64,000 bases of DNA, from positions 32,001 through 96,000 of the IMG/VR virus record IMGVR_UViG_3300045988_149331; one strand, written 5' to 3'. A program made the position numbers and the translations under genes. This stretch comes from a virus. Below are positions 3,032 to 30,668 of the stretch, piece by piece. Each line of letters begins with the position of its first letter. The first letter of the stretch is position 1. A model generated the notes under the pieces. It ran no database searches. It saw only the letters and a program-made list of their open reading frames with translations, and was not told the DNA's origin.

Positions 3032-3068
3032 ATTTCTATGATTTTATGAATTTACAAATTTATAGTTG

Positions 3069-3593: not shown

Positions 3594-3987
3594 ACGGAAT
3601 TGTGATTTTGAGTGCTTCTACACTGATTGAGTTCGTATTCATCCAATCCAGCAAGTAGTCCGACTTATCGGCATTGCTTAATTTTACAAAGTCCGCAGGC
3701 GTCACGGCGCGTTTCGCCAGGTACTCCTTGAATCCTTGTTCCATGAGGGCAATACGCTGCCCCTCCATGGCTACCTTCTGGAACAACGGCGACAACTCAT
3801 CGAGAGTGAGAGTTTCCTGAATAGCCTTACGAAATTCCCGTGCGTCAATGTCATTCAACATCGGGAATTCGCCGCGGAACGGTATAAGTTCCGACGGGCG
3901 TTTACGATCGATGTATCGCGACGCTGCGCCTCCTACAACGGAGGTCGTCAGATTGCGCGGTACACCATATTTGCCTTTGCTTTTCAT
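3571..3987 (-). CDS. Hypothetical protein
   Basis: 138-aa ORF in the tight minus-strand array. It overlaps the next gene by 23 nt. Confidence 0.55.
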   Translation of the reverse strand: MKSKGKYGVPRNLTTSVVGGAASRYIDRKRPSELIPFRGEFPMLNDIDAREFRKAIQETLTLDELSPLFQKVAMEGQRIALMEQGFKEYLAKRAVTPADFVKLSNADKSDYLLDWMNTNSISVEALKITIPYGKYYIR

Positions 3988-3990
3988 GGC

Positions 3991-8981: not shown

Positions 8982-9658
8982 AAGGGTAATTCACCTTCGG
9001 ACCATATTTCCTCGGGTGGGTTTTGTTCTATGAAACGTTGATATTTGTCTATCGTAGGCTCCAGCGACGGGTAGAACCTAAAGGCAAGTTCCCACTTGAC
9101 GTCAAACATATCGTCGCACGGGACTTTGCGCTTCATCAACACATTTTCGTTGTTGTAGCACTGAATTGTGACTTGCTGACGGCCACGCGAAGTGTACGAA
9201 TAGGGAAAGTCGCGATAGTACTCAGCCAGCGAAACCGTATCTTGAACAACGTCGTGAATGAACTGATTGAAGGGGTGTCCCAGCCCCAACGGCGCCAATA
9301 CGGTATAACCACGGTTGCGTCGTAGGAAACGACGCAAATGGTCGCGAAGCGTTTGTTCGGCGAAATTAAGCGTGTCAGTTCCGTATTTAGTTCTGAGGTA
9401 CGTATAGACGCTGGAGAGATTAAAGTCCTTGAAATGGTCGCCAAAATCGCTACAAATCGCATCTTCGAACCCAGTGTCGAAGACATCCATCGTAATACCC
9501 ATGAATTCATAGAGCGATCGCTGTTCTACAACGCGGTTTGGGTCGCTATCTACAGTAAGCACCCGAACGTCATATTCGGGTGCTACTAAAACGTGACAAG
9601 CGCTCATCAGGAGATCACCCGCGTGAGGCTCGACACACAGGTACTTTATTTTTCCCAT
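8978..9658 (-). CDS. LmbE/PIG-L-like putative de-N-acetylase
   Basis: N-terminal YLCVEPHAGDLLMSA compares with the PIG-L AHPDDE block. The later LGLGHPFNQFIHD compares with the HPDH block. It is translationally overlapped with both neighbours. Confidence 0.4.
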   Translation of the reverse strand: MGKIKYLCVEPHAGDLLMSACHVLVAPEYDVRVLTVDSDPNRVVEQRSLYEFMGITMDVFDTGFEDAICSDFGDHFKDFNLSSVYTYLRTKYGTDTLNFAEQTLRDHLRRFLRRNRGYTVLAPLGLGHPFNQFIHDVVQDTVSLAEYYRDFPYSYTSRGRQQVTIQCYNNENVLMKRKVPCDDMFDVKWELAFRFYPSLEPTIDKYQRFIEQNPPEEIWSEGELPF

Positions 9659-10605
9659 GGCCGCTTGTAGATTTTCTCAGCGCAGGGGCCGTCTTTCGAC
9701 ACGTCCTCAGCCATCTTCCGGATTTCCGGCGTGATAGGCGGCAGCGTTTGCTTACCCATTTTGTCAGGCAGGAAGCCGACGCGGACGCTTACGTGCGTAC
9801 ACCCCTGACACGGGCGGAAGCGGCGGTCGTTGTTGTACAGCATGACACGGGCGGCGTGAAAGCGCGGGTGGTTCCACAGGTCTTCGATGGGCATGTCGTG
9901 GATGTTGGCGATTGGGTACTCACCGCGGAAGTCATCACAGCACAGACACACCTGGCCATTCCACCTCACGTCCAGTTCGCGGAACGGGAAGGTGCACCGC
10001 TTGTTGTTGAACGAATCGTCAAGCGGGAAGGCCGCGCCGCAGTGGTTGGCCAGGCGACGTGTCATCTTGTTGGTGTCGTCGTGGGCGATAGGCGGCAGCA
10101 AGCAGATACGACGGCCCTGCTTGGGGTAGTAGTACGGAACGCCGGGTTCCAGCGTCACGACGTTGTACTTATCAACATCGATCTTCTCGACGAAATTCCA
10201 GTCGCCGTTGGCCGTGTAGCAGTCCACCAGAATATCGTTCATACCTGCTCCGAACAGCGCGTCGAGGTACGCCTCGGTGTCTTCAGCGTGGTTCATGGCG
10301 TAACCGTTACTGTACATATGAAACACAGCCTTCGGCAAGTGCTTGCGGAACGTGGCGACGATGTCGATGAAGGCAGGATTCAGCGTCGGTTCGCCGTGCA
10401 TAGCGAACACGAACTTACAGTTCCAACCCACCCGCGCTACCTCCGAAGCAATACGCTCGGCCGTTTCGACGGTCATGAAATTCCAGGGCTTGGTCCCCTT
10501 TTCACGCATACCGTGTAAACCGCAGAACGAACAACCGAGGTTACAGCCCTCGGTAGGTTCAATCTGCATGGTAAACGGGGGGTCTTGTACGATTTTGTTT
10601 TTCAT
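9646..10605 (-). CDS. Radical SAM enzyme with a SPASM/twitch-like Cys-rich C-terminal domain
   Basis: CNLGCSFCG is a CX3CX2C motif, followed by a GEPTLNP block. The C-terminus carries CTFPFRELDVRWNGQVCLCCDD and RPCQGC. Confidence 0.75.
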   Translation of the reverse strand: MKNKIVQDPPFTMQIEPTEGCNLGCSFCGLHGMREKGTKPWNFMTVETAERIASEVARVGWNCKFVFAMHGEPTLNPAFIDIVATFRKHLPKAVFHMYSNGYAMNHAEDTEAYLDALFGAGMNDILVDCYTANGDWNFVEKIDVDKYNVVTLEPGVPYYYPKQGRRICLLPPIAHDDTNKMTRRLANHCGAAFPLDDSFNNKRCTFPFRELDVRWNGQVCLCCDDFRGEYPIANIHDMPIEDLWNHPRFHAARVMLYNNDRRFRPCQGCTHVSVRVGFLPDKMGKQTLPPITPEIRKMAEDVSKDGPCAEKIYKRPWEK

Positions 10606-12678: not shown

Positions 12679-12850
12679 CTTCCTTTAATTCTTTTACCGC
12701 CGCAGCCGTAGCGTCGGCGATGTATTTTAGTACATCGCCTAACGCAGCGGCGTTGTTGGCGTTCCATTCGCGGATAAACCGATCTTCGTACTGAGTAACG
12801 GTGGGGAATGGCGACGGCAAAAAGTGGGTATGTTTGGCGTTGTAAGGCAT
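12632..12850 (-). CDS. Small hypothetical protein, start coupled (TAATG) to the ART gene stop
   Basis: 72-aa ORF. Its ATG shares base 12850 with the TAA stop of the ART gene. Confidence 0.45.
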   Translation of the reverse strand: MPYNAKHTHFLPSPFPTVTQYEDRFIREWNANNAAALGDVLKYIADATAAAVKELKEDGPKKNNLGRVSSEG

Positions 12851-14604
12851 TACTCTTGTTTGCTATCTTCCGGCAACCATTCCATTAAGACACGATTTCC
12901 TTCAATCTTATGGACCTTATAATTTTGGTCTCGGCCAATTAAAAATTCCCCCTCCTCTCCTCCGTAAACCCCTACTACTGGAGCAACCGGGCAACCCGCG
13001 GGAGCGATAATATCAAAATACATAGTCCCCTCGTCGTTGCTAATTTCAGGATAACATGTAGTGCTCATGAACGACTTATCGCTGAACACCTCCCCCTCCT
13101 TGAGATTTTTAACGAAATTATCTGCATCGTTTTCAAACGTAAGTTTCCTGTATAAAACGATATTTTGTCCCACTTTATTTTGAGAAATAAACGTATCAAT
13201 TCCGTTTATGAATTTATCCATTTTATCAGACGATACATCGACTTTGTTGCCGTAAAGGTATTTTCTCATTACAGCAAAGTCAAGATCATCATCTTCGTCA
13301 AAATCGTCATCATGGTCTGCGGAATATAAAACAATAGCTTTTACTGCATCCGAATCGCTTTCGTCCATGAAATCCTCATAAGCGTCAACAATCTTATCAA
13401 AGAATTCAGTTGCATCGTCGCTGTTTAATCGTATGAATTTTTCGCCGTTTATGTCCAACCCACTTTTCCGTAAAGCCCATTTGTACGCTCTATCGGCCTT
13501 TTTGAGAACTTTTTCATTCGCCTTGTCAGAGGGTAATCGCTCAATGTTTTTCGCAGTACTGTCGCCTGATAATGAAATATTAAAACGTTCATTATCTGCT
13601 TCAAATTTCTTTTGTTCTTCTGCTTTTTCCCTTTTAACATCCTCGCTTTTTACCCAAAAAGCGATAGCGTCGTCTTTTGTGTCTTCAGGCACGATATTAT
13701 TTCTTTTCAAGACATCAATCGCCTTTTTAGATAATTCTTCGGGGGTTAATTTATACTTTGAATACTGTTCGTCGGTCTTTCGTAATTTACTCAAAAAGAT
13801 GCCAGCTATCGTCTTTGGTGTATCGCTACCTCGTACTTGATCCAGCAAATCTTTTTCGAATTTCTCATCAACGGCATCTTCGTCTTTATTGTCGTCATCC
13901 TTTTCACTACCCTCCCTGGCGTCAGGATCGCCGAACTTGGACGCGGCTCCCTCGACGTCAGCGATCTCCTTCACCGTCGTGGTCTCGAAATTGTCAACAT
14001 CGGCGTAGGGGTATTTGTCCACGCGGTAGCCTTCGCTGGTCTTGGTGACTACCAGATCGAAGCCGTCTTCGTCGCCGCCGACCTGCTTGATGAACGCGTG
14101 AGAAGCGTCTTCGACTCCAGCGTACTGCTCCAGGTCCTGGTCGTCCATCTGACGGAAGCCCATGGACTCAAACGAGGCCGTCGCCTTGGCGTCACCGTCA
14201 GCCAGGCCGTTACGCAACGAGGCGTCGCCCTTCTTGTTCTTGGCGCGAACGTTCACGCCGCGGCGTTCGAGTTCTGCGGTGGCCACCTTGCGCATTTCAG
14301 CGTCAGCCGACGGATCGTTAGCCACTTTCACCAACGCCTCCTCCGAAGCCGAGCGGGCATGATTCTGGAGGCTGACGTTGCCTCCGGGAACGCCACCTTC
14401 ACCCCCCTCAGCCGCGGGGTCTTTCTCCTTGGCTGCGTGACCGTACTCCTGACCCACACGTTGCAAGCGGCGGTTTTGAGCGTTGTCGGTGTATACACCG
14501 TGACGCGCTTTTTCGATTTCTACCTCTTCAGTTTCGGGGATGTTGACGAACCCCTTGAGGATTTGCTGTCGTTTTGCCTCACCGTAGTTGATAATCTCTT
14601 TCAT
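12850..14604 (-). CDS. ADP-ribosyltransferase (R-S-E class) with a long N-terminal leader/linker
   Basis: C-terminal domain reads VLYRK (R), SFMSTTCY (STS-like) and GGEEGEFLIGR (ExE). The N-terminus has GVYTDNAQNRRLQRVGQEYG and a HEAT-like segment shared with the AAA+ protein. Confidence 0.7.
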   Translation of the reverse strand: MKEIINYGEAKRQQILKGFVNIPETEEVEIEKARHGVYTDNAQNRRLQRVGQEYGHAAKEKDPAAEGGEGGVPGGNVSLQNHARSASEEALVKVANDPSADAEMRKVATAELERRGVNVRAKNKKGDASLRNGLADGDAKATASFESMGFRQMDDQDLEQYAGVEDASHAFIKQVGGDEDGFDLVVTKTSEGYRVDKYPYADVDNFETTTVKEIADVEGAASKFGDPDAREGSEKDDDNKDEDAVDEKFEKDLLDQVRGSDTPKTIAGIFLSKLRKTDEQYSKYKLTPEELSKKAIDVLKRNNIVPEDTKDDAIAFWVKSEDVKREKAEEQKKFEADNERFNISLSGDSTAKNIERLPSDKANEKVLKKADRAYKWALRKSGLDINGEKFIRLNSDDATEFFDKIVDAYEDFMDESDSDAVKAIVLYSADHDDDFDEDDDLDFAVMRKYLYGNKVDVSSDKMDKFINGIDTFISQNKVGQNIVLYRKLTFENDADNFVKNLKEGEVFSDKSFMSTTCYPEISNDEGTMYFDIIAPAGCPVAPVVGVYGGEEGEFLIGRDQNYKVHKIEGNRVLMEWLPEDSKQE

Positions 14605-17942: not shown

Positions 17943-18200
17943 TTAGCGTGAATATAGGTAGGCGGTACGGTCGTCCCAAACGAAATTGAAACTCATATCC
18001 CCTTGAGGATATTCCGTGATGGTAATGCCGTTGGCGGTTGTTTCACGTTCGATACGCCAGCCCGGCTCTCCCTGGCCTGTGCCGATAGGGGCATATCCGC
18101 GATACACGGTCCCCTCAGTGGAAGCGTCGATGATAGGCTTCGGCATGGCCTCCGAAAGCAACTGCACGATGGGTGCAGTATTCTTCTCGTTACTCGTCAT
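17943..18200 (-). CDS. Small hypothetical protein downstream of the portal
   Basis: 85-aa ORF overlapping the portal stop by 11 nt. Confidence 0.5.
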   Translation of the reverse strand: MTSNEKNTAPIVQLLSEAMPKPIIDASTEGTVYRGYAPIGTGQGEPGWRIERETTANGITITEYPQGDMSFNFVWDDRTAYLYSR

Positions 18201-19956
18201 GATCTATTGCTTTTTGTAAGTATTCGTCAAATGCGGCCACGAGCGGGTTTGCCTCACGGGCCTTCATAGTCTCTTCGTCGTCGCCTTGGGCGTAAAGGTC
18301 AAACGGGTTGCCGCCCTGGGCGTCGGCGTCTTCTTCGCCTTCACCACCAGCCACAGGCTCATCAGCCGGGCCGCCTGCTGCCTCCATACCCATACCAGCG
18401 GCCTCTTCGAATGGGTTTCCACCGCCCATTCCCATACCGCCCATCGCCTGCTGCTGTTGCTGCTTGGCGCTGAGGGCTTGTTGAATAACGGAGTTTTCGA
18501 TAGTATCACCACCCTTTTCTTCGCCGATGGCGGGGAGGTCCCACTTTTCGCGAATTTCATCGACGGTCTGGAAGGCTTGAAGGCGTTTGATGTCCATATC
18601 CAACTCCTCGGAAATAGTCATTCCGTTGAGGCCCATGAACACGAACTCAAAGTCAGGGTTAATCTGGTCAACGATGAACTTGTTAATCTTACGCTGGATG
18701 AACTTCAACAGCGGATACAGACCCTTGTCTTTCGACTGCTCCATACGTTGTTTTTGGCCATCGCCAAACGTCAGGCCGCTGTTGTTAGAACGTGATATGT
18801 CCCAACCGATTTCCGTCGGGTCGATACAGTACACAGCGCAAGCGATCTTAATCAGGTATTCCATCCAAGACGTGTACTCCATATCACGGTTGTTCTTCTG
18901 GAGGTCTACCCAGTCAATATCACCTTCGACGACAGGCGTCTTCCACGACTGCATAACGCCTGAAATCATCGCCTGCCACTGCTGTTTGAACTGCTGAAGC
19001 GAAGCCTCGTTGACGTTGCCCTTGATACGCAACAGACCCTTCGGGGCTGACCCCTGTGAGAAGAAACGGCGGTTGTACTCATCACCCCAAAGCATCGACG
19101 TGACGACGTTGATCAACTCTTCCAACTCGGAGTTCCCGTAGCCGTTAGCGTAGATAGACGTTGACGGGTTGCGGATTCCAAAGCACAACTCCCATGGATA
19201 GAACTGTGCCACCTTGGCTGTTTGGTACACCTGGACGTAGGCCGGGTAGTAACCGTCGATTTTTTGCCCCCAGTTTTGGCGGTCATCCATCATTACGCCG
19301 CGGAAATACGGGTTGTCGTATTCACCATCAAAGTACGAATCTGCCAACCGGAACGTAGCAGCGTCTACAGCCTGGAAACGTACCAATTTACCGCGGCGAT
19401 TGCGGATACATTCAAACGTCAGCTGGTCGAACGTCAACGAGTCGTCAACGATCTTACGTATGAACTCGTCAAATTCGTCACCATCCCACGCAGCAGTATC
19501 GCCACAGTTTAGGATGAAGTCCGTGATGGACGAAGCGATCTTGCAGTCTTGGGAGTCCATTTTCTGCTCCATACCGTGACGCGGCTTGCGTCGAATAACG
19601 AAGCCCGTCGAATAGCGGTCGGCCTGCGGTTCAGCAAAGTCGGCCACCTGATTCTTACGGGTCTTGATGATGGAGTTGATAATGGGGGTGCGGCTCATCC
19701 GGCGCAGCGTCTCGTACGAGAGTGAGAACGGCTTATCCTTGTAACCCAAAAACGAGTTGAACTCCAACGGGTCGATGAGATATGCCTTGGGGGCCACGTT
19801 GGCGGGCTTGCTTTGCTGGTTAAATATTTCGGCCGCTTTGAGTATGTCGGACGGGTTATCACCACGCAGCGCCTTCTCCACCAACAGCGATTTGCGGATG
19901 GTCAAGGCTTGCATGGCGCGTTCTACCGATTCCAATCTTTCTTTTACACCGGACAT
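18190..19956 (-). CDS. Portal protein
   Basis: 588 aa, in the head-morphogenesis block upstream of the MuF gene, with a Gly/Met-rich then acidic C-terminal tail. The family call rests on size, context and general resemblance. Confidence 0.6.
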   Translation of the reverse strand: MSGVKERLESVERAMQALTIRKSLLVEKALRGDNPSDILKAAEIFNQQSKPANVAPKAYLIDPLEFNSFLGYKDKPFSLSYETLRRMSRTPIINSIIKTRKNQVADFAEPQADRYSTGFVIRRKPRHGMEQKMDSQDCKIASSITDFILNCGDTAAWDGDEFDEFIRKIVDDSLTFDQLTFECIRNRRGKLVRFQAVDAATFRLADSYFDGEYDNPYFRGVMMDDRQNWGQKIDGYYPAYVQVYQTAKVAQFYPWELCFGIRNPSTSIYANGYGNSELEELINVVTSMLWGDEYNRRFFSQGSAPKGLLRIKGNVNEASLQQFKQQWQAMISGVMQSWKTPVVEGDIDWVDLQKNNRDMEYTSWMEYLIKIACAVYCIDPTEIGWDISRSNNSGLTFGDGQKQRMEQSKDKGLYPLLKFIQRKINKFIVDQINPDFEFVFMGLNGMTISEELDMDIKRLQAFQTVDEIREKWDLPAIGEEKGGDTIENSVIQQALSAKQQQQQAMGGMGMGGGNPFEEAAGMGMEAAGGPADEPVAGGEGEEDADAQGGNPFDLYAQGDDEETMKAREANPLVAAFDEYLQKAIDHDE

Positions 19957-19993: not shown

Positions 19994-20317
19994 TCAACCC
20001 AACATTTTCAAAATGTCGTTGCAGGCCGTTTTCCTGATTATCAACGCTTGATGAACGATATCTCCCCACACCGCCAACTGATGACCGCGCCATGAGTAGT
20101 AGTCGGTTTGGTCATCGTACGAACCTTGCCACTCGCCTTCGCTGCGTATAGTAGCCACCAAACGGCGAAATGCTCGCTGTTCGTCGGTAGTGAGGGGTGA
20201 TATAAAAGTGCCGACGACTACTAATCGTGCGGCACTCGTTGTTAGATCATCGGCTAACGTTTGAAAGTTAATGCCCATGAACTCACCTGTCTCTAATGGG
20301 GTATGAAAAGTTATCAT
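19994..20317 (-). CDS. Hypothetical protein
   Basis: 107-aa ORF with a 4-nt overlap with the upstream gene. Confidence 0.55.
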   Translation of the reverse strand: MITFHTPLETGEFMGINFQTLADDLTTSAARLVVVGTFISPLTTDEQRAFRRLVATIRSEGEWQGSYDDQTDYYSWRGHQLAVWGDIVHQALIIRKTACNDILKMLG

Positions 20318-21324
20318 TCGCCAACCAATTTTACAGTTCGTGGTTCAAAAGTAGAGCGTTGCTTACCTTCACCGATGCGCATCTTCCAGTATTTTTGATA
20401 TTCACACAACCACATCTCGATCTGGTGAAGGGTTATATTGCCGTGAGGCGTTGTGTAATATCCTGCTTCGAGTTTGTGCCAGTGTAGGTACGGAAAATCT
20501 CCAAATGTCGCCAACGCCACCTGCGCTTCATCACGCAGACGATAGATACCGTCAATTTGACGTTTCAACGACGGGAATATTAACCGCAACCCAATCGACG
20601 CCCCAGGCCCCACGTTAGTGTAGTCATCCTGAGTGAAACGCATGAAACGCCGATATGTATATCGCGGTATATAGGTGAAATCTTGATAGAATTCGTGAGC
20701 GATGAATGCAGCCGATGACGGAAGCCCCTGAAGGAACTTGATGATCTGTTCAGGAGTTTGGGCCGTAAATACCATCTTGATGAGTTCACCCAAGCGACGG
20801 TGTAACGTAGGCACTACCAGATGGGTGTAACAGTAATCACGCGGTTTACCCGGCGTGGCCATGGAATTGATGAGATATGCCGTGGTGTAGGGGTTGTTCC
20901 CCGAAGCGCGGTACGACGTTATCATCTCTGCAAAAGCGTCTTCGTCGTAGCTGTCGTAATCTGGAATACCAGCGCCCCAGCCATACTTATCGCGAGCGTA
21001 TTCAAAAGTACTGGGGTTGTTGAAATACCGGAACACCATCATCTTCCACACCAAGCTGGCTAACGACAATGAATCATCCAACAGAATATTTCGAATTTGC
21101 CACTGGGAATTTCGATCCAGTTCGCGGTACACGTTAGTGAACTTGTAGTCGCGCAAAATAGGGTCTTCAGTCCAGGGGCGTGGTTGGTGATCGATGAAAC
21201 GTCGTTTCCAGATCATTTGCCGCTCAAACATCGTGCGAAAGAACTCCGTGCGGTGTTCGTCGCTCACGTCAAGCGTATCAGATGGGAGTTTGTCACTCCA
21301 AGAATAGTGATCAAAGTTTGCCAT
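20314..21324 (-). CDS. Putative DNA base hypermodification enzyme, alpha-glutamyl/putrescinyl-thymine pyrophosphorylase (aGPT-Pplase)-like
   Basis: MIWKRRFIDHQPRPWTEDPILRDYKFTNVYRELDRNSQW matches my memory of the PWT.DPIL..Y.F.NVYRE.DR block of this family. The later AFIAHEFYQDFTY block also fits. This needs an HMM check. Confidence 0.5.
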   Translation of the reverse strand: MANFDHYSWSDKLPSDTLDVSDEHRTEFFRTMFERQMIWKRRFIDHQPRPWTEDPILRDYKFTNVYRELDRNSQWQIRNILLDDSLSLASLVWKMMVFRYFNNPSTFEYARDKYGWGAGIPDYDSYDEDAFAEMITSYRASGNNPYTTAYLINSMATPGKPRDYCYTHLVVPTLHRRLGELIKMVFTAQTPEQIIKFLQGLPSSAAFIAHEFYQDFTYIPRYTYRRFMRFTQDDYTNVGPGASIGLRLIFPSLKRQIDGIYRLRDEAQVALATFGDFPYLHWHKLEAGYYTTPHGNITLHQIEMWLCEYQKYWKMRIGEGKQRSTFEPRTVKLVGE

Positions 21325-21625
21325 TTTGTTTACAATAGCTTCGTATCAGCAATTCACGGCGCGCTTCAGAGGTCTTTCCAGCCAGCCGGAACAACGTAGC
21401 ATCAGGCAAGTTCTTCAGTGGTCGTTTAGCTGCATTTACAAGACGCGCTTCGTCTATAACGAGGTTTACCCTTATCCGCCGCCCGCGGATCAATTTGACG
21501 GACTCTGCAGCGAGCAGTGGACAATAATCGTTACCGTGTAACGAACGTACAATAAACGTCATCGAACCCCAAACCTCAGGGTCTGCAACGACGTCGCCTA
21601 TTTTGAAATATCTCCATCGGTCCAT
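21311..21625 (-). CDS. Hypothetical protein
   Basis: 104-aa ORF in the array. Confidence 0.5.
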   Translation of the reverse strand: MDRWRYFKIGDVVADPEVWGSMTFIVRSLHGNDYCPLLAAESVKLIRGRRIRVNLVIDEARLVNAAKRPLKNLPDATLFRLAGKTSEARRELLIRSYCKQNGKL

Positions 21626-24482: not shown

Positions 24483-24758
24483 TTAACAATCCATCACTAA
24501 ATTTCCCGCCAACTCCAACTCATACAACCGTTCAGCATCAGGCTTGGCGTAACAGAATATCAACTTTCCACCGCCCGCAGCCCGCAACGCTTTACGATAC
24601 GTCGCCTTGATGCGGGCCAACTCTTCGCTTCGGTAAAAATCGTAGTCGCTTACACACAACTCCCACCACCGCTCTTGCCGCGACGCCCAGGCTATGACTC
24701 CTGGGCGTTCGGCTTCAATCCGCTTTACAGCAGCTAATAACAGCGCGTCGTGTTTCAT
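24483..24758 (-). CDS. Hypothetical protein
   Basis: 91-aa ORF with a 4-nt overlap with the upstream gene. Confidence 0.5.
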   Translation of the reverse strand: MKHDALLLAAVKRIEAERPGVIAWASRQERWWELCVSDYDFYRSEELARIKATYRKALRAAGGGKLIFCYAKPDAERLYELELAGNLVMDC

Positions 24759-25342
24759 AACGTTTCGTCGATAGACTGCGCCAACTCAGCCAACAGCCTT
24801 ACGTGTACGCGCTCGTCGGCGATAATCTTGTTGAGGAGTTGAACCGCCAACGTAGAAGTAGTGGTCGGCGTAGGGTTGCCTGCTTGGATGCGCTGGATGA
24901 GTTTTTCGTACTCAGCGATGGTGTCCTGCTCGGCGCGAATATTGATCTGGATGGCTTCAGCCGCGCTTTCGGTCGTTATGTCCACTTTGGCTGCCGAAAA
25001 CACAGGCTTCGATACCGCGTGACCCAGATGGTGAATGAAGTCGCCTAATCGGTCGTAGTGCTTCATCTCGGTGAGGGCGATACCCAGGAACGTTTCGCCA
25101 ATCTGATCGAAAAGCATCCGCTGTTGGGTGTATTGGATGATGGCGGTGAGTTCGGACGTTCCGGTAATTCCGGCGTAGACTTTGTAGAACCACTCGGCCG
25201 GAACGCCGTCGTCGGCTTTAGCCTTGGAGATGTCGGGATAGTCAATCGCGTGGTCGGCGTAACGCATCGACTCTACCAGCGCGTCGGCCATGATTTCGAC
25301 GTTGTCCTGCTTGGCGGGTTGGTGTACGAGAATCGTTTTCAT
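24755..25342 (-). CDS. Ferritin-like di-metal four-helix-bundle protein (Mn-catalase/CotJC-like)
   Basis: GTSELTAIIQYTQQ...IALTEMKHYDRL supplies one E..H motif. EQDTIAEYEKL...ADERVHVRLL supplies the second. Confidence 0.55.
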   Translation of the reverse strand: MKTILVHQPAKQDNVEIMADALVESMRYADHAIDYPDISKAKADDGVPAEWFYKVYAGITGTSELTAIIQYTQQRMLFDQIGETFLGIALTEMKHYDRLGDFIHHLGHAVSKPVFSAAKVDITTESAAEAIQINIRAEQDTIAEYEKLIQRIQAGNPTPTTTSTLAVQLLNKIIADERVHVRLLAELAQSIDETL

Positions 25343-25344
25343 GA

Positions 25345-25890
25345 CTATTTGGTTTCAGGTTCTTGGCTCTTGACGGTCGATCCCCATCCTGCTTCGCCGC
25401 GAGCGCTGGGCGTGAGTTCTTCGACGAGTGTAGGTTCAATCAACGGCGCAGGCACAATCACCAGCTGAGCAACGACGTCGCCCTTCTTGTACGCCTTACA
25501 TTCGTACGACAGCTCCCGCATTTTGAAGTCGGCGATAGTCCCTAAGACGTTGGAGAACAACACCGCCAAACACCGCGACATACGCTGCCACAGCGTGGGC
25601 ATGTGATAGATCTTTTTGTAGCGTACCAGCATCTCGCCACGGTACCCCGGGTCGATAATACCCGGCGCGTTACACATCACCAGGTCCATCTTCGACACGC
25701 GCGAGTTGGGGACCAGCAACCCGCTGTACCCTTTGGGAATTTCAACGGCGATTCCCGTCTGGTACTCGATGAAATCTTCGGTTTCGCGTACTCCAACGGC
25801 TACCAGGTCCAAGCCGTTATCCTCGCCATCGGCGTGGGCATACGCCGGCAACGTGGCGTTGGGGTTGAGTTTCTTGAATTTTACGTTCAT
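25345..25890 (-). CDS. dut: Trimeric dUTPase-family enzyme with an insertion between motifs III and IV
   Basis: The five motifs are NGLDL, PNSRVSK, GIIDPGYRGE, GDVVAQLVI and RGEAGWGST. About 35 extra residues (KKIYHMPTLWQRMSRCLAVLFSNVLGTIADFKMRELSYE) sit between motifs III and IV. Confidence 0.7.
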   Translation of the reverse strand: MNVKFKKLNPNATLPAYAHADGEDNGLDLVAVGVRETEDFIEYQTGIAVEIPKGYSGLLVPNSRVSKMDLVMCNAPGIIDPGYRGEMLVRYKKIYHMPTLWQRMSRCLAVLFSNVLGTIADFKMRELSYECKAYKKGDVVAQLVIVPAPLIEPTLVEELTPSARGEAGWGSTVKSQEPETK

Positions 25891-26702
25891 TTCTTGTATC
25901 CTTTTAAGTGTATTTTGACCTCGATCATCTCACGGTCCTTCATTTCACCACCCCAGTTGGTACACTTTTTGGTACGGAGGGTGATGTACTCGGGGAACGC
26001 TTCTCTTAAACGTTGTGATTCGGCGTTGGAGTTCTCGATCGTACGATAAATCGAACAACCACCAGCGGCGTTGGCTCCCGTCATTTTGTCGAACGAATAC
26101 TGATACGAGACGATATTATCCAACCCCGCGCGGCGTAATCCACACGCCACGGCGAAATCCTCCTTTATGGGCCAATCGCTGAACCTGACAGGCTGACTTA
26201 GATACTGGGCGATATTGAGGCCCCAAATGGAGAAGAACCGCCCGTTTATTTGTACGTCGTGTTCCTTGTCGCGGTTGAACGGACGGTATGAAAGCGCAGC
26301 CACGGCGTAGGTGTCTAACTGCTCAGCCACCCAGTCGAACATCATCTGGTAGATGTATTCCTGCGCCTCGACGGTGAAATTGTCGTTGTTTACGACCACA
26401 GGGGTCTTGGCATCGTCTAAACGCAACGAGAAAGACACGTTATCGTCTAAGAAAAAGACTCCTCCAAATCCCCTATCAACGGCCTCTACAACAATATAGT
26501 CCCGTATGTCCCCCACGCCGCGACACGCCGTACTGTATTCCTCGATACTGGCTACTTTTCCACCCCAGTTGCGCTGGTGAGCCGCCAACTCGCCGGGGTG
26601 ACAGAATATGTGGACGCGCTTCAACGCTTCAGGCGTCAACCGTTGAAGAGTTTTTTGGCGGTCAACACGACCTCGTGTGAATAAGGCTATCAGAGTTTTC
26701 AT
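25887..26702 (-). CDS. GT-A-like glycosyltransferase-like protein, paralog of 8172..8981
   Basis: ALFTRGRVDR...GVGDIRDYIVVEAVDRGFGGVFFLDDNVSF and the late AAGGCSIY block. Same block order as the other copy. Confidence 0.4.
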   Translation of the reverse strand: MKTLIALFTRGRVDRQKTLQRLTPEALKRVHIFCHPGELAAHQRNWGGKVASIEEYSTACRGVGDIRDYIVVEAVDRGFGGVFFLDDNVSFSLRLDDAKTPVVVNNDNFTVEAQEYIYQMMFDWVAEQLDTYAVAALSYRPFNRDKEHDVQINGRFFSIWGLNIAQYLSQPVRFSDWPIKEDFAVACGLRRAGLDNIVSYQYSFDKMTGANAAGGCSIYRTIENSNAESQRLREAFPEYITLRTKKCTNWGGEMKDREMIEVKIHLKGYKK

Positions 26703-26721: not shown

Positions 26722-29442
26722 CTAACCTAACATGTCGAACTTAAATCCCGTCGTCATACGCGAAGCCGCCAAGTCAGCCAACCAGAACGAAGACGAAATA
26801 TCGTCATGACTGCCGACGCTCTCCAGCCCCTTTTCGGTGAAGGCTACTGAACCGAGGTCTTGGAAGATGAGGTCCTTGACCTGCTGTGAATAGACGTTCC
26901 CCACCGGGATGTGAATCTTACCGCGTTCGAACAGCGTCGATAGGTGGGGCCATCCGGTCTTGAGGTCATATTTGTCGATTCCAGTTGTATGGCCGATGAC
27001 GGGCATCCCTTCGGTATCAGCTGTTTCGACGAATATCTGCTGAAAGGTGTTATTCTCCATCACGATCAGGTCAGGCCGGAAACGGGAATTTATACGCCGC
27101 AAGACATTCATCTGCTCGAAGAACTTGGCGCCTTTTTCGCGGTAAAGGTGAAGCAGCCAACGCTCATCAGTCAGTTCGTCAATACCCCACACGCTGAATA
27201 CCGCGTAGTCAGCGCCGACGTTGGCTGAAATAGCGAAGTCACAGCCAACGACTACCTTGGAGAACTTGATGGGGAACTCTTCGCGTGAATCCACCAGCGT
27301 GTATTTCTCCATCCTCAGCAGCGACCGCGTGAGAATTTCCATCGGGAAAATAGACGATTCGTTGGTGATCGGGCGGCAAAGGTTCTCGCGCGAGAAGATG
27401 ATCGACCCCTGGGTCTCCTTTTTATCCATCAGATCCTTAAACGACCAACGCTGCGGCCACAATATTCGCCCGTTGGGGAAGATGGCCGGATATTCGATAA
27501 CGAACCAACCGTTCTTGGTCTTCAGGTCGCCATAAAGGTCTTCAGCGTGAAACGGTGTACCGACGACGATAATTTGGCCGCCAGGTACGAGCATGTTCAT
27601 AATTACGGAGTGGAAATAGTCGGTGGATTTGTTCCGTTGGAGAGCCGAATAGATGACGTTATCCTTCAGACCATCATCGACGATAATCCAGTACGGGTGA
27701 GCGCCACGCACCGAAGAACCAAAACCCTTGCCTGTCAAACGCGCGCCGTTACGGCACACTATATTGGTAGCTGACCAGTTGGCTGACGTTGACTGAGGAT
27801 AGAGTCGTTCCTTCAAGATTTCGTTTTCCTCGATGGTACCCTTCAGAATCTCCAAAAGGTCAACGCTCTGTTGTAACGAGAACGAAAACAGAAATCCGCG
27901 GTTCGACGACGCCACGGTGGGACGCTTCGAATAACGAACGCTTGACGGCTTTTTGTAGCGGTACAACTGCCACGCTGCGTAGGCGTTGGAGAAGTAGAAC
28001 GAGTTGTGAGCAACCGTTCCGTCGCCCAGTACGAAGCGATGGTCGCCATCGGTGGTGATCGAGACATATTCCCCTTCGCCAACAGGCGTGATCTTCAACG
28101 ACGATACCACCGTAGGGTGAACACCATCGATAGTTCCCCAGTCTTTGTGTGACGTCTTGGTAGACCAGTCGGTTTGGACCTTTTTACGGGCTATTTTCAC
28201 GGGGATTCGATCCAGTTCGCCAGAAATAGTTACACACCACGACGAATAGTCACGCCCTAACGCCTTACAATACCGCGTTCCACCGCCCATTCGCGTACAG
28301 AAGCCAAGACTGTCGGCCAGGTTCTTCACGTCACACACCAGCTGGTAGTTCGTATTACCGAAGTGATAGCCACCCTGCCAGTAGTTACCGTCGGAATCGA
28401 TCAACCCAGCCAACACCTGGAGGCGGACTGCTTCGCTGTTGACGAGATACTGCTCTGGAATGTGTTTATTGTAAAGCAGGTTGTAGCCCTTCAACACCCT
28501 TTCAATCGGGTTACGCTTACCGCGACCCCGAACGCCGACTCCAAGCGTCACGACAAGTCCCTTTTGGCTGTAGCGAAGCCCCGTGCGCTCGGCGTAGCCG
28601 CGGAGATATTCACGCACTTCAGGGTCGGCGGTGGTGATCTTCTGGTTGTTGGAGTTGCCGTCACCTAACCAGTACCCCAAGAAATACGGCTCCAACGTCA
28701 CAGGCCGTGCTGGATATTGTACCGCTACCTTGAAACCACGATAACGTTCCTTGATCCAGTTGGGGGTCTTACTTAACAGGGTCGGCATATCAATGTCCAC
28801 TATCCGCTTCGACGCTGTATCGATGGAGCCGTTGCGGTCCTTTTCGATCAGCGTACAAATGTGACGCGAATTGACCGTGTAACTATCACCGCGCGACTGG
28901 TCGATACGGTACATCGTGGAATCGTGACCGCGGTGCGTAGCCACCACACGGCGTGGTGTAGAGTTGATACCCATCAACAGATCGCCAACCACAACGTCTT
29001 CTACCCTCTTGATGGTTCCGTCGTACATCCTCACTGGTGTTCCAACAGCCTCACATTTCCCGTGGTCACGAGCAGCGTTGATACACAGTTTCTTGTGCTG
29101 GTGAACTAAATCGCCCCACTCCAGGTGGTGCCACGATAGTTGAAAGTCGGGGATAACGGAAGTGATGAAATACGTCAAATTGGCACACCGCAGCGTGTCT
29201 TCCACCACGGCAGAAATATTCTCTTCATAGCGCGGCTTAAAGTCGATCGACGCGTCACCTGTGTACATCACCTTGTAGGTGTCTTCCATCAACGCCGCGA
29301 ATATATCGTCAACATCGTGTGAGTCGCCACTCATCAACTCATTCAGTCCGCGCTCATCCAGCCCCTCGATTATTTCATCAACGAGGTCCAGGCACGCCAA
29401 ACGGTGCGTCACCGACGGCGATATAATAGTGTCTAAACCCAT
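26722..29442 (-). CDS. terL: Terminase large subunit precursor containing an intein
   Basis: The exteins join as INAARDHGK|SFYFSNAY, a Walker A-like motif. The extein total is 555 aa. The C-terminal half shows nuclease-type acidic blocks. Confidence 0.75.
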   Translation of the reverse strand: MGLDTIISPSVTHRLACLDLVDEIIEGLDERGLNELMSGDSHDVDDIFAALMEDTYKVMYTGDASIDFKPRYEENISAVVEDTLRCANLTYFITSVIPDFQLSWHHLEWGDLVHQHKKLCINAARDHGKCEAVGTPVRMYDGTIKRVEDVVVGDLLMGINSTPRRVVATHRGHDSTMYRIDQSRGDSYTVNSRHICTLIEKDRNGSIDTASKRIVDIDMPTLLSKTPNWIKERYRGFKVAVQYPARPVTLEPYFLGYWLGDGNSNNQKITTADPEVREYLRGYAERTGLRYSQKGLVVTLGVGVRGRGKRNPIERVLKGYNLLYNKHIPEQYLVNSEAVRLQVLAGLIDSDGNYWQGGYHFGNTNYQLVCDVKNLADSLGFCTRMGGGTRYCKALGRDYSSWCVTISGELDRIPVKIARKKVQTDWSTKTSHKDWGTIDGVHPTVVSSLKITPVGEGEYVSITTDGDHRFVLGDGTVAHNSFYFSNAYAAWQLYRYKKPSSVRYSKRPTVASSNRGFLFSFSLQQSVDLLEILKGTIEENEILKERLYPQSTSANWSATNIVCRNGARLTGKGFGSSVRGAHPYWIIVDDGLKDNVIYSALQRNKSTDYFHSVIMNMLVPGGQIIVVGTPFHAEDLYGDLKTKNGWFVIEYPAIFPNGRILWPQRWSFKDLMDKKETQGSIIFSRENLCRPITNESSIFPMEILTRSLLRMEKYTLVDSREEFPIKFSKVVVGCDFAISANVGADYAVFSVWGIDELTDERWLLHLYREKGAKFFEQMNVLRRINSRFRPDLIVMENNTFQQIFVETADTEGMPVIGHTTGIDKYDLKTGWPHLSTLFERGKIHIPVGNVYSQQVKDLIFQDLGSVAFTEKGLESVGSHDDISSSFWLADLAASRMTTGFKFDMLG
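28003..29055 (-). mobile_element. Intein (351 aa) with a LAGLIDADG homing endonuclease, inserted in the TerL P-loop
   Basis: It starts CEAVGTPVRMYDG and ends GDGTVAHN, with Ser as the +1 residue. The LAGLIDADG motifs are YFLGYWLGDGNS and VLAGLIDSDGNY. Boundary codons were checked at 29053-29055 (TGT) and 28003-28005 (AAC). Confidence 0.8.
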
Positions 29443-29512: not shown

Positions 29513-29989
29513 TCATCTCTTCACCTCCAGCGCCGTGGTGAGGTATTTCTCCATCTCGAGCGATTCACGCTGGTAGACTTCCTCGGGGTAGTCTTCCAGC
29601 AACAACCGCTTATAGCCTTCAACGGCATTACCCAGTAGCTGGGCGAGTTGTATGATTTTAGCCTTGTAGACCGCCGCACGGTCATCGGGGCTGAAGGCGA
29701 AGCAGAATTTTGTCTTGTTAGCGTCGAAGAATTTGACGTAGTTAAACGCGCTGAGCGTTTCAAGTAGTTCGAGTGCCGTGCGGTGCGACAGCGTTGTCTT
29801 TTTGACTACCTCGGTACGTGTGTAAGGCCGCTGGGCCGACATTTCAAGTTCCAGATGGTCCTTATTCAGAATACGAAGCAATTCGAGAGCCTTGGTGAAA
29901 GCCAATTGGCGATTTTCGTCTTGCTCGGTGAACTTTTGTGCCGCTGCTACCTCTTCGGGCGTTTGAGCGGCTTGTTTCTTATCTGCCAT
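29513..29989 (-). CDS. Candidate small terminase subunit / DNA-binding protein
   Basis: 158 aa, immediately upstream of terL. A helix-turn-helix-like segment reads TLSHRTALELLETLSAFNYV. The call rests on position only. Confidence 0.3.
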   Translation of the reverse strand: MADKKQAAQTPEEVAAAQKFTEQDENRQLAFTKALELLRILNKDHLELEMSAQRPYTRTEVVKKTTLSHRTALELLETLSAFNYVKFFDANKTKFCFAFSPDDRAAVYKAKIIQLAQLLGNAVEGYKRLLLEDYPEEVYQRESLEMEKYLTTALEVKR

Positions 29990-30668
29990 TTTGTTTTACG
30001 GTTTCTCGTTTTATAGTTGGAAATAATTCTCCCGTAAACCGAACCATCGTGCGCTGGAGATGGGCGAAAATGTCTTCCGGTTTGAGGTGGAGTTCTTGTA
30101 ACAACACCCGTTCCATCGTAATCAGTCCCTCGGTGTCAGGCAGACGATACACAACGTCGAAATTGTATTTTCCGTCGTGAGGATCGCGATAAATGGTGAC
30201 GATCTTCACCTCGATGATTTCGATAGGCCCTTCTGCGCCCGTGATAATGTAACGCGAATCGCCAATTTGAGGGAGAATGTTGCCCTTAACGCGAATTGCC
30301 TTTCCGTTCTGGTTGACGTCGCGCGGGGGGGTTACATGTTTTTGCCTTGAAGTAGCACGTTTCGCGCGGCTGTAGTCTTGATTCTCCAACCAAACCTGCG
30401 CCGCCAATTTATCGAGATCAGGGATAGTGGCGGAGGTGGGGACGTAACGATATCTGATCGTTGACTTCACGCCTTCGCGTTGGATAATACCCACGCTGGA
30501 AAGTACTTTGAACAGCGCCGGCGATACCTTGGGGCTGATGCCGTTCTTAGTGAGGATAGCACCAAACGACGCGCCAGGTTCCATCACACTAACCCATTTG
30601 TTGAGCGAACGTTCTAAGATGTCGGCAATGGCCGCCTTGACGCCTTTTTCGAAAAGTTCTTGTTTCAT
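29979..30668 (-). CDS. Hypothetical protein (possible wHTH N-terminus)
   Basis: 229-aa ORF overlapping the next gene by 11 nt. Confidence 0.55.
   Translation of the reverse strand: MKQELFEKGVKAAIADILERSLNKWVSVMEPGASFGAILTKNGISPKVSPALFKVLSSVGIIQREGVKSTIRYRYVPTSATIPDLDKLAAQVWLENQDYSRAKRATSRQKHVTPPRDVNQNGKAIRVKGNILPQIGDSRYIITGAEGPIEIIEVKIVTIYRDPHDGKYNFDVVYRLPDTEGLITMERVLLQELHLKPEDIFAHLQRTMVRFTGELFPTIKRETVKQNGR

Follow-up and report, generated by a model that had tools for sequence, protein, structure and literature searches.

The gene at positions 20314 to 21324 of the window, i.e., of the whole 64,000-nucleotide stretch of viral DNA that was analyzed, encodes a stand-alone protein of 336 residues that belongs to clade 1 of the aGPT-Pplase superfamily (PF18723), as shown by both its family assignment and its fold. 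Most likely, this enzyme acts post-replicatively on 5-hmdU in the phage's own DNA and does so without a 5-hmdU DNA kinase, a reading to which we assign a probability of about 0.6. Enzymes of this superfamily play a central part in thymidine hypermodification, a means by which phages evade restriction enzymes. A known family is found here in an unusual context: whereas every characterized pathway includes a 5-hmdU DNA kinase, that of the phage group described here does not.

The gene is located on the minus strand and runs from its ATG start at 21324 to 20314. A search of Pfam with the deduced protein returned PF18723 ("HMUDK_hel") with an E value of 3.9e-51 and 174.5 bits, the gathering cut-off of this family being 25 bits; residues 26 to 320 were aligned to model positions 5 to 279 of 281, and no other Pfam family was matched up to an E value of 1. 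PF18723 was previously termed "aGPT-Pplase clade 1" and currently carries the Pfam name "5-hmdU DNA kinase helical domain." A comparable match was obtained to PHROG 2396 (E = 6e-50). About 700 homologs were retrieved from metagenomes, and in a library of 1.84 billion proteins the family matches amounted to 3,104 clusters at 50% identity, the family being mostly stand-alone at a length of 290 to 400 residues, with fusions rare. Orthologs include SN1_020 (the ortholog of M6 gp55), orf156 of Cba120 (ViI gp160 type), and the C-domain of SP10 gp186. These proteins and PhiW-14 gp72 share the PF18723 assignment with the focal protein, to which they are 23 to 30% identical over nearly the full length.

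The original prediction, made from the letters of the sequence, had recognized an aGPT-Pplase signature in the block PWTEDPILRDYKFTNVYRELDRNSQW, which we located at residues 50 to 75 (nucleotides 21100 to 21177). The open reading frame proved to be real, the PF18723 match lies far beyond chance, and the proposed HMM comparison with the aGPT-Pplase clades gave a significant, near full-length match to clade 1. Likewise, homologs were indeed present in the phages that had been named, i.e., in ViI-like, M6-like, SP10-like, and PhiW-14 phages. The proposed enzyme identity, an alpha-glutamyl/putrescinyl-thymine pyrophosphorylase, held at the level of the superfamily of 5-hmdU phages but not beyond it, as the protein belongs to clade 1 and not to the characterized clade 2, and the name "pyrophosphorylase" is itself a superseded prediction.

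An open reading frame of 107 amino acids and the portal gene (18190 to 19956), the latter assigned by a PF04860 match in relatives, lie immediately downstream of the clade-1 gene in the sense of transcription. Upstream lies orf104 (21311 to 21625, minus strand), whose stop shares 14 nucleotides with the start of the clade-1 gene. This conserved upstream neighbor had no match in Pfam or PHROG; in 78 of 80 clade loci, the two genes are adjacent.

The AlphaFold2 model of the protein displayed a pLDDT of 89.9. In Foldseek comparisons, it reached TM scores of 0.60 to 0.73 with models of clade-1 proteins (among others SP10 gp186, PhiW-14 C9DG43, phiRSL1, and proteins labeled Pplase1) and of about 0.49 with proteins labeled "amino acid:DNA transferase." The two top-ranked of 350,542 PDB chains were 8Z2N and 8Z2M, both representing the clade-2 protein PaMx11 gp46; the probability of this match was 0.98, but the E value was 0.06 and the TM score only 0.40 to 0.46. 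Next in rank were helix-hairpin-helix (HhH) glycosylases, specifically 3-methyladenine glycosylase, Ogg, and AGOG, with TM scores of 0.25 to 0.31 and E values of about 1. As modeled, the fold is all-alpha and appears to be related to that of the HhH DNA glycosylases. Both single-sequence (phmmer) and profile searches against the PDB sequences returned no matches, so that the link to 8Z2N comes from fold comparison alone.

Residue conservation was counted in 142 diverse PF18723 members, most of them sharing less than 50% identity. All 142 members share R35, N64, R67, D70, F207, and G241, C307 and K311 are found in 141 each, and E308 is found in 139; these nine residues, each conserved in 98 to 100% of the members, are all present in the focal protein and also in the orthologs of SP10, YungSlug, SN1, and Cba120. 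N64, R67, and D70 are part of the N-terminal signature PWT...F-T-N-x-Y-R-E-L-D-R (minus strand), i.e., the block quoted above, in which W51 is found in 136 of 142 members; the same signature residues are invariant in the four orthologs. Close to the C terminus, conservation and a local alignment to clade 2 point to a putative catalytic motif, E303-M-W-L-C307-E308-Y-Q-K311-Y312 (20389 to 20418, minus strand), whose first position is occupied by Glu in 130 members and by Gln in 11. The local profile alignment placed E303 and C307 on E243 and C247 of the clade-2 protein of SN1, a weak match of 17 residues with an E value of 0.22, and no alignment was obtained when the focal family and clade 2 were compared globally with hhalign. 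The E243/C247-type pair is essential in M6 gp51, ViI gp247, and PaMx11 gp46 (PMC8989533, PMC11472151). The Glu-x3-Cys-Glu-x2-Lys motif is near-universal in the family, and its Glu and Cys would correspond, on this weak alignment, to the clade-2 catalytic pair. The paralogs of the hypermodifying phages share with the focal protein a common set of invariant residues that includes E-x3-C-E-x2-K-Y.

Clade 2 is represented by M6 gp51, ViI gp247, PhiW-14 gp109, PaMx11 gp46/PUGT (8Z2M, 8Z2N), and the Pplase2 proteins of YuA and SH-Ab 15599. Common to these enzymes and the focal protein are the Glu-x3-Cys arrangement, a "D-P-I" motif in the N-terminal region, and a GP-x-x-x-G element, and both clades belong to 5-hmdU DNA pathways. 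In contrast, there is no significant sequence match between them, the SN1 clade-2 protein giving none to the focal protein in phmmer, and the structural resemblance is limited to the low TM score given above. The Thr that follows the Glu in clade 2 (E-T motif) and serves as a metal ligand is not conserved in clade 1, where the equivalent position 304 is mostly His (79 members), followed by Asn (24), Met (16, including the focal protein), and Phe (14), whereas the Glu after the Cys (E308) is an additional invariant residue of clade 1. Furthermore, the clade-2 substrate 5-PmdU requires a kinase, which the focal phage group lacks. Judged by its sequence, the focal protein is not the characterized clade-2 amino-acid:DNA transferase. 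Within the superfamily, activity has been assigned only to clade 2, and none has been reported for any member of clade 1. Specifically, the clade-1 paralogs M6 gp55 and ViI gp160 were left out of the minimal reconstitutions, the reaction still yielded product when M6 gp55 was excluded, and the kinase activity of SP10 gp186 persists without its clade-1 domain (PMC8989533).

Neither a 5-hmdU DNA kinase nor a clade-2 transferase was present in the window, in the approximately 36 kb of the genome that the window omits, or in about 230 related loci; the part beyond the window was read from close IMG/VR relatives (80 to 99% identity), not from the exact genome. An HMM built from six kinases, for which positive controls gave E values of 1e-52 to 1e-74, reached a best E value of 0.95 in the window and 195 loci (3.4 Mb of clade sequence) and retrieved nothing from 80 further clade loci. 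phmmer searches for kinase and clade-2 transferase returned no matches, the SN1 clade-2 protein finding none in the window, the unseen arc, or the clade loci, and the scanned open reading frames of window and arc contained no Pfam match to the clade-2 transferase. In a distant relative (L300), a cassette of kinase and clade-2 genes is inserted beside the clade-1 gene, and since the kinase HMM detects the L300 kinase, the approach is effective within this group of phages. Clade 1 thus belongs to the conserved gene core of a large group of uncultivated phages of approximately 100 kb, with Bacteroidales possibly as hosts, and the decoration modules are accessory and interchangeable, with TAGT genes in the focal phage and the kinase and clade-2 cassette in L300. 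A P-loop protein of 585 residues (6379 to 8136) was considered as a cryptic kinase and rejected; it carries AAA+-like motifs, had no match in Pfam or to the kinase HMM, and matches phrog_1250, a family of unknown function. This protein and the neighboring ADP-ribosyltransferase-domain protein have an N-terminal motif in common.

The phages harboring the clade-1 paralogs M6 gp55, ViI gp160, PhiW-14 gp72, and SP10 gp186 all encode a 5-hmdU DNA kinase and, except for SP10, a clade-2 transferase, whereas the focal group encodes neither; in both, clade 1 is associated with a dUMP hydroxymethylase. Unlike in these classic hypermodifying phages, the clade-1 gene of the focal group adjoins the portal gene and is found together with genes for TAGT glycosyltransferases. 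Clade 1 and kinase co-occur almost 1:1 in cultured phages (451 versus 411 records), so that phosphorylation may normally be a prerequisite of clade-1 chemistry. When viral contigs were scanned for more distant surroundings of clade 1, most of what was retrieved again belonged to the phage clade described here, and consequently kinase co-occurrence across the family is a rough estimate.

The right edge of the window cuts through a minus-strand gene (63574 to 64000) for a predicted dUMP hydroxymethylase of the thymidylate synthase (TS) family, leaving the C-terminal 141 of 408 residues, which are 99% identical to residues 268 to 408 of the 408-residue protein of a relative (L004:8773-9999). The latter protein matched PF00303 with an E value of 1.7e-22, and its best PDB match was the hydroxymethylase MilA. 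In the alignment with MilA, the catalytic Cys is kept ("dlpCnd"), and the base-specificity position is occupied by Asn ("lptNif"), as opposed to Asp in the cytosine-specific MilA. Its top phage matches, with 46 to 50% identity, were SPO1 gp29, the SP10 dUMP hydroxymethylase, and the enzymes of SP8 and YungSlug, while its scores against the NCBIfam thymidylate synthase equivalogs were 60 to 73 bits, compared with cut-offs of 108 to 327. By these comparisons, the protein is closer to characterized hydroxymethylases than to thymidylate synthases. The gene is present in 58 related loci, and linkage of clade 1 to a TS-family gene was also found in SP10, YungSlug, SN1, and the contigs L286, L287, and L354.

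A candidate dTMP-depleting enzyme is encoded at 57615 to 58322 (minus strand), namely a YfbR-like HD 5'-deoxynucleotidase (PF12917, E = 1.4e-13; NCBIfam 5'-deoxynucleotidase, E = 9e-9, under the curated cut-off) that is conserved in 32 related loci. In the M6-like phage SN1, an HD phosphohydrolase gene likewise adjoins the hydroxymethylase gene. A dUTPase-family protein with an internal insertion (25345 to 25890, minus strand), a candidate dUTPase/dTTPase, matched PF00692 in two stretches (E = 2.3e-9) and the NCBIfam dUTP diphosphatase with an E value of 3e-20, again under the curated cut-off. Taken at their predicted functions, hydroxymethylase, YfbR-like nucleotidase, and dUTPase constitute the classic toolkit for pre-replicative replacement of T by 5-hmdU, and from this gene content we infer that the phage DNA contains 5-hmdU.

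The window also contains two genes for TAGT glycosyltransferases, both on the minus strand. The first (8172 to 8981; PF20691, E = 5e-13), a candidate 5-hmdU DNA glycosyltransferase, matched phrog_842, annotated as "beta-glucosyl-HMC-alpha-glucosyltransferase," with an E value of 1e-16 and is present in 17 of the 21 related loci that cover its position. The second (25887 to 26702; PF20691, E = 1e-12; phrog_842, E = 4e-27) is located between TerL and the dUTPase gene and is accessory, as it is missing from relatives of 81% identity (L001 to L003) and occurs in 21 of the 80 clade loci. Adjacent to the first lies a gene for a radical SAM/SPASM enzyme (9646 to 10605, minus strand; PF04055, E = 2e-15; PF13186, E = 3e-12) that is conserved in 23 related loci and showed no similarity to the M6-type glycinyl-thymine isomerase; it may be tied to DNA modification, as judged by its position beside the TAGT gene. 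As for orf226 (8978 to 9658), the LmbE-like character suggested by eye ("EPHAGD") was not supported by Pfam, PHROG, or NCBIfam.

Two PF20691 TAGT genes could glycosylate 5-hmU in a manner resembling the TET/JBP (5mYOX)-associated glycosyltransferase systems and trypanosome base J. A TET/JBP route to 5-hmU, prompted by these genes, was discarded, as the scanned open reading frames of window and arc contained no TET/JBP dioxygenase or ParB and a hydroxymethylase is encoded instead; 5-hmU would arise pre-replicatively through the latter, in contrast to the base J and TET systems. A further point of reference are the SPO1-type "5-hmU phages" (SPO1, SP8, SP82G), whose portal protein is about 40% identical to that of the focal phage, whose gp29 is 46 to 47% identical to the focal hydroxymethylase, and whose dUTPase and nucleotidase logic is alike. 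These phages have no aGPT-Pplase genes, the aG/PT-PPlase family being confined to phages with hypermodified DNA, and leave 5-hmdU unprocessed (PMC5889632), whereas the focal group adds clade 1, the TAGT glycosyltransferases, and the radical SAM enzyme and uses a DnaE-type polymerase for replication.

With these genes placed, the earlier view of the pathway can be revised. That no P-loop 5-hmdU DNA kinase is visible in the window was borne out and extends to the rest of the genome, via its relatives, and to the whole phage clade. The dUMP hydroxymethylase reported as not visible is present after all, truncated by the window's edge, and the suggested scan of the remaining genome, run on relatives, recovered this thymidylate-synthase-like gene and no 5-hmdU DNA kinase. 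Consequently, the pathway described as incomplete possesses its first step and lacks both kinase and clade-2 transferase. The other genes that had been cited as hints of a non-canonical pyrimidine are real, i.e., the two TAGT glycosyltransferases, the radical SAM/SPASM enzyme, the dUTPase with its insertion, and the YfbR-like HD 5'-deoxynucleotidase.

If the clade-1 enzyme operates by analogy with clade 2, it would extrude the modified base from the helix by base flipping, Cys307 would add to C6 of the pyrimidine, and the substituent on the 5-CH2-O group would depart to leave an exocyclic methylene, which a nucleophile or reductant would then resolve. With neither a 5-hmdU DNA kinase nor a clade-2 transferase encoded, the substrate cannot be 5-PmdU phosphorylated by the phage; candidates are 5-hmdU itself, 5-hmdU glycosylated by the TAGT enzymes, or a base activated by an unrecognized or host enzyme. 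In its most specific form, post-replicative action without a kinase would mean that clade 1 is autonomous and kinase-independent and that its conserved Cys acts on 5-hmdU or glycosyl-5-hmdU, either regenerating thymine at selected sites or adding an unknown group, a proposal that we put forward tentatively and regard as possible rather than probable.

A related proposal, unlikely in our judgment, is that clade 1 removes the hydroxymethyl oxygen of 5-hmdU and thereby regenerates thymine, independently of an amino-acid transferase and, in this phage, of a kinase. As a shared "housekeeping" step, thymine regeneration would explain why clade 1 is core while the decoration modules, be they kinase/AADT or TAGT genes, are accessory and variable. 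Unmodified 5-hmdU is converted to T before packaging in hypermodifying phages, a step for which the literature consulted names no enzyme, and chemical reduction of the clade-2 methylene intermediate gives thymidine (PMC8989533); clade 1 retains the Cys. Moreover, clade 1 occurs in all four classic hypermodifying phages and is missing from SPO1, in which 5-hmdU persists (PMC5889632), and in L286 the clade-1 gene adjoins TS-family and Tmk genes. On the other hand, the all-alpha protein of 336 residues has no evident reductant- or cofactor-binding domain, a dithiol mechanism would call for a second conserved Cys, which the family does not possess (C165 is variable), and an unphosphorylated hydroxyl is a poor leaving group.

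Less probable still is a non-catalytic role, in which clade 1 would be a helical module that recognizes 5-hmdU DNA and recruits or positions partners; in SP10 the partner would be the kinase, here the TAGT enzymes. Such a module would agree with the name given by Pfam and with SP10 gp186, where the domain is fused to the kinase, as well as with the DNA-binding, HhH-like fold and the fact that clade 1 was dispensable for the in vitro reconstitutions (PMC8989533). However, conservation of C307, E308, K311, N64, R67, and D70 is at the level of an active site, the family is overwhelmingly stand-alone, and the SP10 kinase functions independently of the domain (PMC8989533). We consider it quite improbable that the protein works in the manner of a DNA glycosylase and, instead of decorating bases, excises them (for example, uracil, thymine, or 5-hmU) in genome hygiene or in an attack on host DNA. 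HhH glycosylases do follow the clade-2 enzyme in the structural ranking, and clade 1 occurs near thymidylate-metabolism genes in the cellular-looking contigs L286 and L287, but these structural matches are weak, a transferase ranks first in structural similarity, and the conserved set centers on a Cys, as in enzymes attacking C6 of pyrimidines, and not on the Asp/Lys of HhH-GPD proteins. Assignment as a terminase small subunit, suggested by a secondary match to phrog_800 (E = 5e-6), by the TerS label of a Klebsiella phage homolog, and by the location of the gene between those for terminase and portal, the latter adjoining it, is effectively refuted, since the label derives from the RefSeq misnaming of SP10 gp186, a demonstrated 5-hmdU DNA kinase, and was propagated to Ackermannviridae kinases, family and fold are those of aGPT-Pplase, and two small open reading frames immediately upstream of TerL (29513 to 30668) are better candidates.

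All classic hypermodifying phages carry clade 1, a very large family (over 3,000 clusters at 50% identity) whose Pfam name suggests a passive appendage of the kinase. The status of clade 1 as a core gene of a widespread phage group, the near-invariant Cys, Glu, and Lys, and the retention of the hydroxymethylase without kinase or clade 2 argue for an independent enzymatic role. The focal phage may reveal the action of clade 1 on its own and offers a simple test system, in which one enzyme is combined with 5-hmdU DNA and the two glycosyltransferases are optional additions. A predicted non-canonical thymine in common uncultivated phages also bears on sequencing bias, restriction evasion, and host-range studies. 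If the kinase-independent reading is true, these phages would follow an undescribed scheme of thymine modification, in which pre-replicative 5-hmdU is glycosylated by TAGT enzymes and then subjected to clade-1 chemistry, and they would provide a naturally minimal setting in which the function of clade 1 could be assigned.

The minus-strand open reading frame from 21324 to 20314 starts with ATG and encodes 336 residues, of which residues 50 to 75 form the block PWTEDPILRDYKFTNVYRELDRNSQW, as the original prediction had it. Placement in the aGPT-Pplase superfamily was likewise correct: a Pfam profile search matched PF18723 along practically its full length (E = 3.9e-51), and a PHROG profile search returned PHROG 2396 (E = 6e-50), a group with no function assigned; NCBIfam contains no model for this protein. 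As seen from phage annotations (Sphaerotilus phage SN1), PF18723 is the former "aGPT-Pplase clade 1," now termed "5-hmdU DNA kinase, helical domain" after gp186 of Bacillus phage SP10, a fusion protein whose N-terminal P-loop 5-hmdU DNA kinase is followed by the PF18723 domain. The family comprises 3,104 clusters at E <= 1e-3, nearly all members being stand-alone proteins of 290 to 400 residues, and the SP10-type kinase fusion is an exception within it. Pairwise searches matched the focal protein to SN1_020, the clade-1 gene of SN1, at E = 1e-17 and gave no match to the SN1 clade-2 gene. Membership in PF18723 clade 1 is thus practically certain, and the protein belongs to this uncharacterized clade rather than to the transferase clade. 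In summary, its place in a known family is real and well supported, and its genomic context is atypical and informative.

The distinction between the clades matters because every biochemically characterized enzyme of the superfamily, i.e., M6 gp51, ViI gp247, PhiW-14 gp109, PaMx11 gp46, and Pplase2 of YuA and SH-Ab 15599, belongs to clade 2, now called amino-acid:DNA transferases (PMC8989533, PMC11472151, PMC13458397). For clade 1, no activity is reported in the papers searched, which extend to August 2026. Glycinyl-thymidine is still made in a reaction without M6 gp55, a clade-1 paralog, and the SP10 kinase is active without its C-terminal domain (PMC8989533).

Alignment of the focal protein with orthologs at 23 to 30% identity (YungSlug, the C-terminal domain of SP10 gp186, SN1_020, and Cba120 orf156) revealed the invariant motifs PWT, F-x-N-x-x-R-x-x-D, GPG-x3-G, and E-x3-C-E-x2-K-Y. 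Among 142 clade-1 members, mostly representatives of 50%-identity clusters, Arg35, Asn64, Arg67, Asp70, Phe207, and Gly241 occur in every sequence, Cys307 and Lys311 in 141 each, Glu308 in 139, and Glu303 in 130, with Gln in a further 11. In clade 2, Glu243, Thr244, and Cys247 are essential; the first two bind the metal, and Cys247 is proposed to add to C6 (PMC8989533, PMC11472151, PMC13458397). Local profile alignment placed Glu303 and Cys307 exactly on Glu243 and Cys247 of the SN1 clade-2 protein, although the match itself is weak (E = 0.22). The AlphaFold2 model of the focal protein is confident and all-alpha (pLDDT, 89.9; pTM, 0.87), and the best two hits among 350,542 solved chains were both PaMx11 gp46 (8Z2N and 8Z2M; probability, 0.98; TM, 0.40 to 0.46), followed by HhH DNA glycosylases. 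Among predicted viral structures, clade-1 proteins scored TM values of 0.60 to 0.73, versus approximately 0.49 for "amino acid:DNA transferase" proteins. The weak local alignment and the moderate fold similarity hint that Glu303/Cys307 may be equivalent to the clade-2 pair, and the focal protein is likely an enzyme. Met takes the place of the clade-2 metal-ligand Thr in the focal protein, most clade-1 proteins have His there, and, unlike clade 2, clade 1 has an additional invariant Glu after the Cys. Conservation, fold, and these differences together make the focal protein homologous to the transferases, with an active site that is related to theirs but distinct.

GenBank contains no close relative of the phage; SPO1-like Herelleviridae and a Chryseobacterium phage have portals with approximately 40% identity to its own. 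Metagenomes contain abundant homologs of the focal protein (54 to 99% identity), carried by contigs of about 97 to 121 kb. Since several homologous contigs behave as circularly permuted genomes of ~100 kb, the window leaves out about 36 kb. This arc was rebuilt from the closest IMG/VR relatives, and its sequence is that of the relatives rather than the exact genome. A BACON-domain protein in the arc of one relative (IMGVR_UViG_3300045988_153922; L072:8495-9229) and a homologous 97-kb contig binned with an uncultured Bacteroidales MAG (L284, CALNBJ010000005.1) give weak hints of a Bacteroidales host.

The original prediction had found no dUMP hydroxymethylase, but scanning the rebuilt arc uncovered a predicted one severed by the window edge. 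In the relative's arc, the gene just upstream of that for the DnaE-type polymerase encodes a 408-residue protein of the thymidylate synthase family (PF00303, E = 1.7e-22), and the C-terminal 141 residues of this protein are encoded, with 99% identity, by the last 427 nt of the window; as only this part lies inside, the gene was unrecognizable there. The protein falls far under the NCBI cutoffs for true thymidylate synthases. Among solved structures it is closest to MilA, a pyrimidine hydroxymethylase, and its nearest phage relatives (46 to 50% identity) are the SP10 "dUMP hydroxymethylase," SPO1 gp29, and proteins of SP8, SP82G, and YungSlug. The catalytic Cys is kept, and the residue governing base specificity is an Asn (dUMP type), versus Asp in MilA; we therefore predict a dUMP hydroxymethylase. 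Together with the YfbR-like HD 5'-deoxynucleotidase and the dUTPase of the window, it would form the classic toolkit for pre-replicative replacement of T by 5-hmdU, as judged from gene content. No TET/JBP dioxygenase was found among the scanned reading frames of window and arc.

Clade 1 lies within about 1 to 2 kb of the hydroxymethylase gene in SP10, YungSlug, and SN1, and in three of the sparsely sampled distant contexts it directly adjoins a thymidylate-synthase-family gene with no kinase within 10 kb: an IMG/VR contig (L354), a Nitrososphaerales MAG (L286:9857-12407, where a thymidylate-kinase-family gene follows), and a Nanoarchaeota MAG (L287:9965-12158). In both MAGs the clade-1 homolog is divergent (26% identity) and immediately upstream of the synthase-family gene; the surroundings look cellular (ABC, MFS, and EamA transporters, SLATT), and these loci may represent the module as it occurs in a cell's own genome or in an integrated element.

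In the annotated M6-type cluster of SN1, the order is clade 2, PLP enzyme, rSAM, kinase, clade 1, and Nmad5, with hydroxymethylase and HD protein farther on. Pairwise searches of the six-frame window and arc with SP10 gp186 and gp218 and the SN1 kinase, clade-2, PLP, rSAM, and Nmad5 proteins gave no match; the same searches recovered the hydroxymethylase and clade-1 genes. A profile built from six diverse 5-hmdU DNA kinases detected its positive controls (E = 1e-52 to 1e-74), among which was the previously unannotated YungSlug kinase. Applied to the window and 195 clade loci (3.4 Mb), the profile gave no hit with E below 0.95, and 80 further loci centered on the focal gene yielded no match. 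The absence of a P-loop 5-hmdU DNA kinase noted for the window was thereby borne out and extended to the arc and these loci. Of the suggestion that the pathway is incomplete or divergent, divergence stands, as kinase and clade 2 are absent from window and arc; the predicted hydroxymethylase is present. Among cultured phages, clade 1 and the kinase co-occur nearly one to one (451 versus 411 records, with matching per-genus counts).

The YungSlug kinase (QKE56546.1, L196:4107-4796), a "hypothetical protein" three genes upstream of the clade-1 gene, matched the profile at E = 3e-52 and is clearly a predicted 5-hmdU DNA kinase; YungSlug is therefore probably thymidine-hypermodifying, like SP10. 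In RefSeq, SP10 gp186 (L197:8383-10296, NC_019487.1), an experimentally shown 5-hmdU DNA kinase, is labeled "terminase small subunit." This label has been carried over to many kinases of Ackermannviridae and Vibrio phages (including L200 and H90-H124) and to PHROG 800, resulting in spurious TerS matches for clade-1 proteins.

Several further window genes deserve mention; those for the large terminase, the polymerase, the head-module proteins, and the ferritin-like protein lie on the minus strand. The large terminase (26722-29442) has 906 residues, versus 563 in 81%-identity relatives; its ~340-residue insertion holds the LAGLIDADG-type motif LAGLIDSDG and thus probably represents an intein that includes a homing endonuclease. 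The DnaE-type polymerase (58289-63572) is split into an N-terminal part (61869-63572) and a 956-residue C-terminal part (58289-61159), which appears to carry an HNH-containing intein, with a GIY-YIG/NUMOD homing-endonuclease gene (61129-61881) between them. Positions 55911-56678 hold a second GIY-YIG gene, and the primase region of relatives harbors a further one (L072:15451-16206). Three large head-module proteins, i.e., a 793-residue protein with kinase-like motifs and no Pfam match (3991-6372), an AAA+-like P-loop protein (6379-8136, phrog_1250), and an ADP-ribosyltransferase toxin domain protein (12850-14604; PF03496, E = 2e-9) of variable length in relatives (521 to 691 residues in L001-L003), apparently share an N-terminal motif, as judged by eye only, and may be packaged or ejected effectors. 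A ferritin/rubrerythrin-like protein (24755-25342), weakly matching NCBIfam encapsulin ferritin-like cargo proteins, is encoded between the dUTPase and a FEN-type nuclease and kept in relatives.

One distant relative from the same broad group, L300 (IMGVR_UViG_3300033066_000822; portal, E = 2e-194; clade 1, E = 2e-106), carries an inserted cassette (1311-4596) directly upstream of its clade-1 and portal genes. The cassette encodes three proteins. The first is a 5-HMUDK-like kinase (HMM E = 1e-12). The second, clade-2-like and 305 residues long, has an E-T-x-x-C motif and matches a single phage protein, annotated as "aGPT-Pplase2 domain protein" in Rhodococcus phage Tonitrus (E = 2e-6). The third is a putative FkbM-like methyltransferase, recognized by its motif by eye only and matching nothing in the databases. 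The cassette suggests an uncharacterized thymine hypermodification, perhaps involving methylation. Consequently, clade 1 is a core gene of this phage group and decoration modules are accessory. In the window, the accessory role is filled by two TAGT glycosyltransferases (8172-8981 and 25887-26702, minus strand; PF20691; phrog_842, "beta-glucosyl-HMC-alpha-glucosyltransferase"), the first present in 17 of the 21 loci covering its position and the second in 21 of 80. Directly upstream of the first, a radical SAM/SPASM enzyme and an unannotated 226-residue reading frame (8978-10605, minus strand) are kept in all relatives covering their position; the former is unrelated to the M6 glycinyl-thymine isomerase. 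The two may tailor a DNA-linked glycan or be unrelated head-module genes.

From gene content, dTTP would be replaced by 5-hmdUTP and 5-hmdU incorporated into phage DNA. By analogy with clade 2, the focal protein would then flip the base out of the helix, Cys307 would add to C6, the 5-CH2-O substituent would depart, and the exocyclic methylene would be captured. As no kinase is encoded in window or arc, the leaving group could not be a phage-installed phosphate; candidates are direct acid-catalyzed dehydration of 5-hmdU, the reverse of the hydration step of the hydroxymethylase, a sugar installed by TAGT, or activation by an unrecognized or host enzyme. We assign this overall explanation a probability of roughly 60%. 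An attractive possibility is that clade 1 regenerates thymine at the polymer level, a step known in hypermodifying phages to which the examined papers assign no enzyme (PMC8989533); this would account for clade 1 being core and the decoration modules variable.
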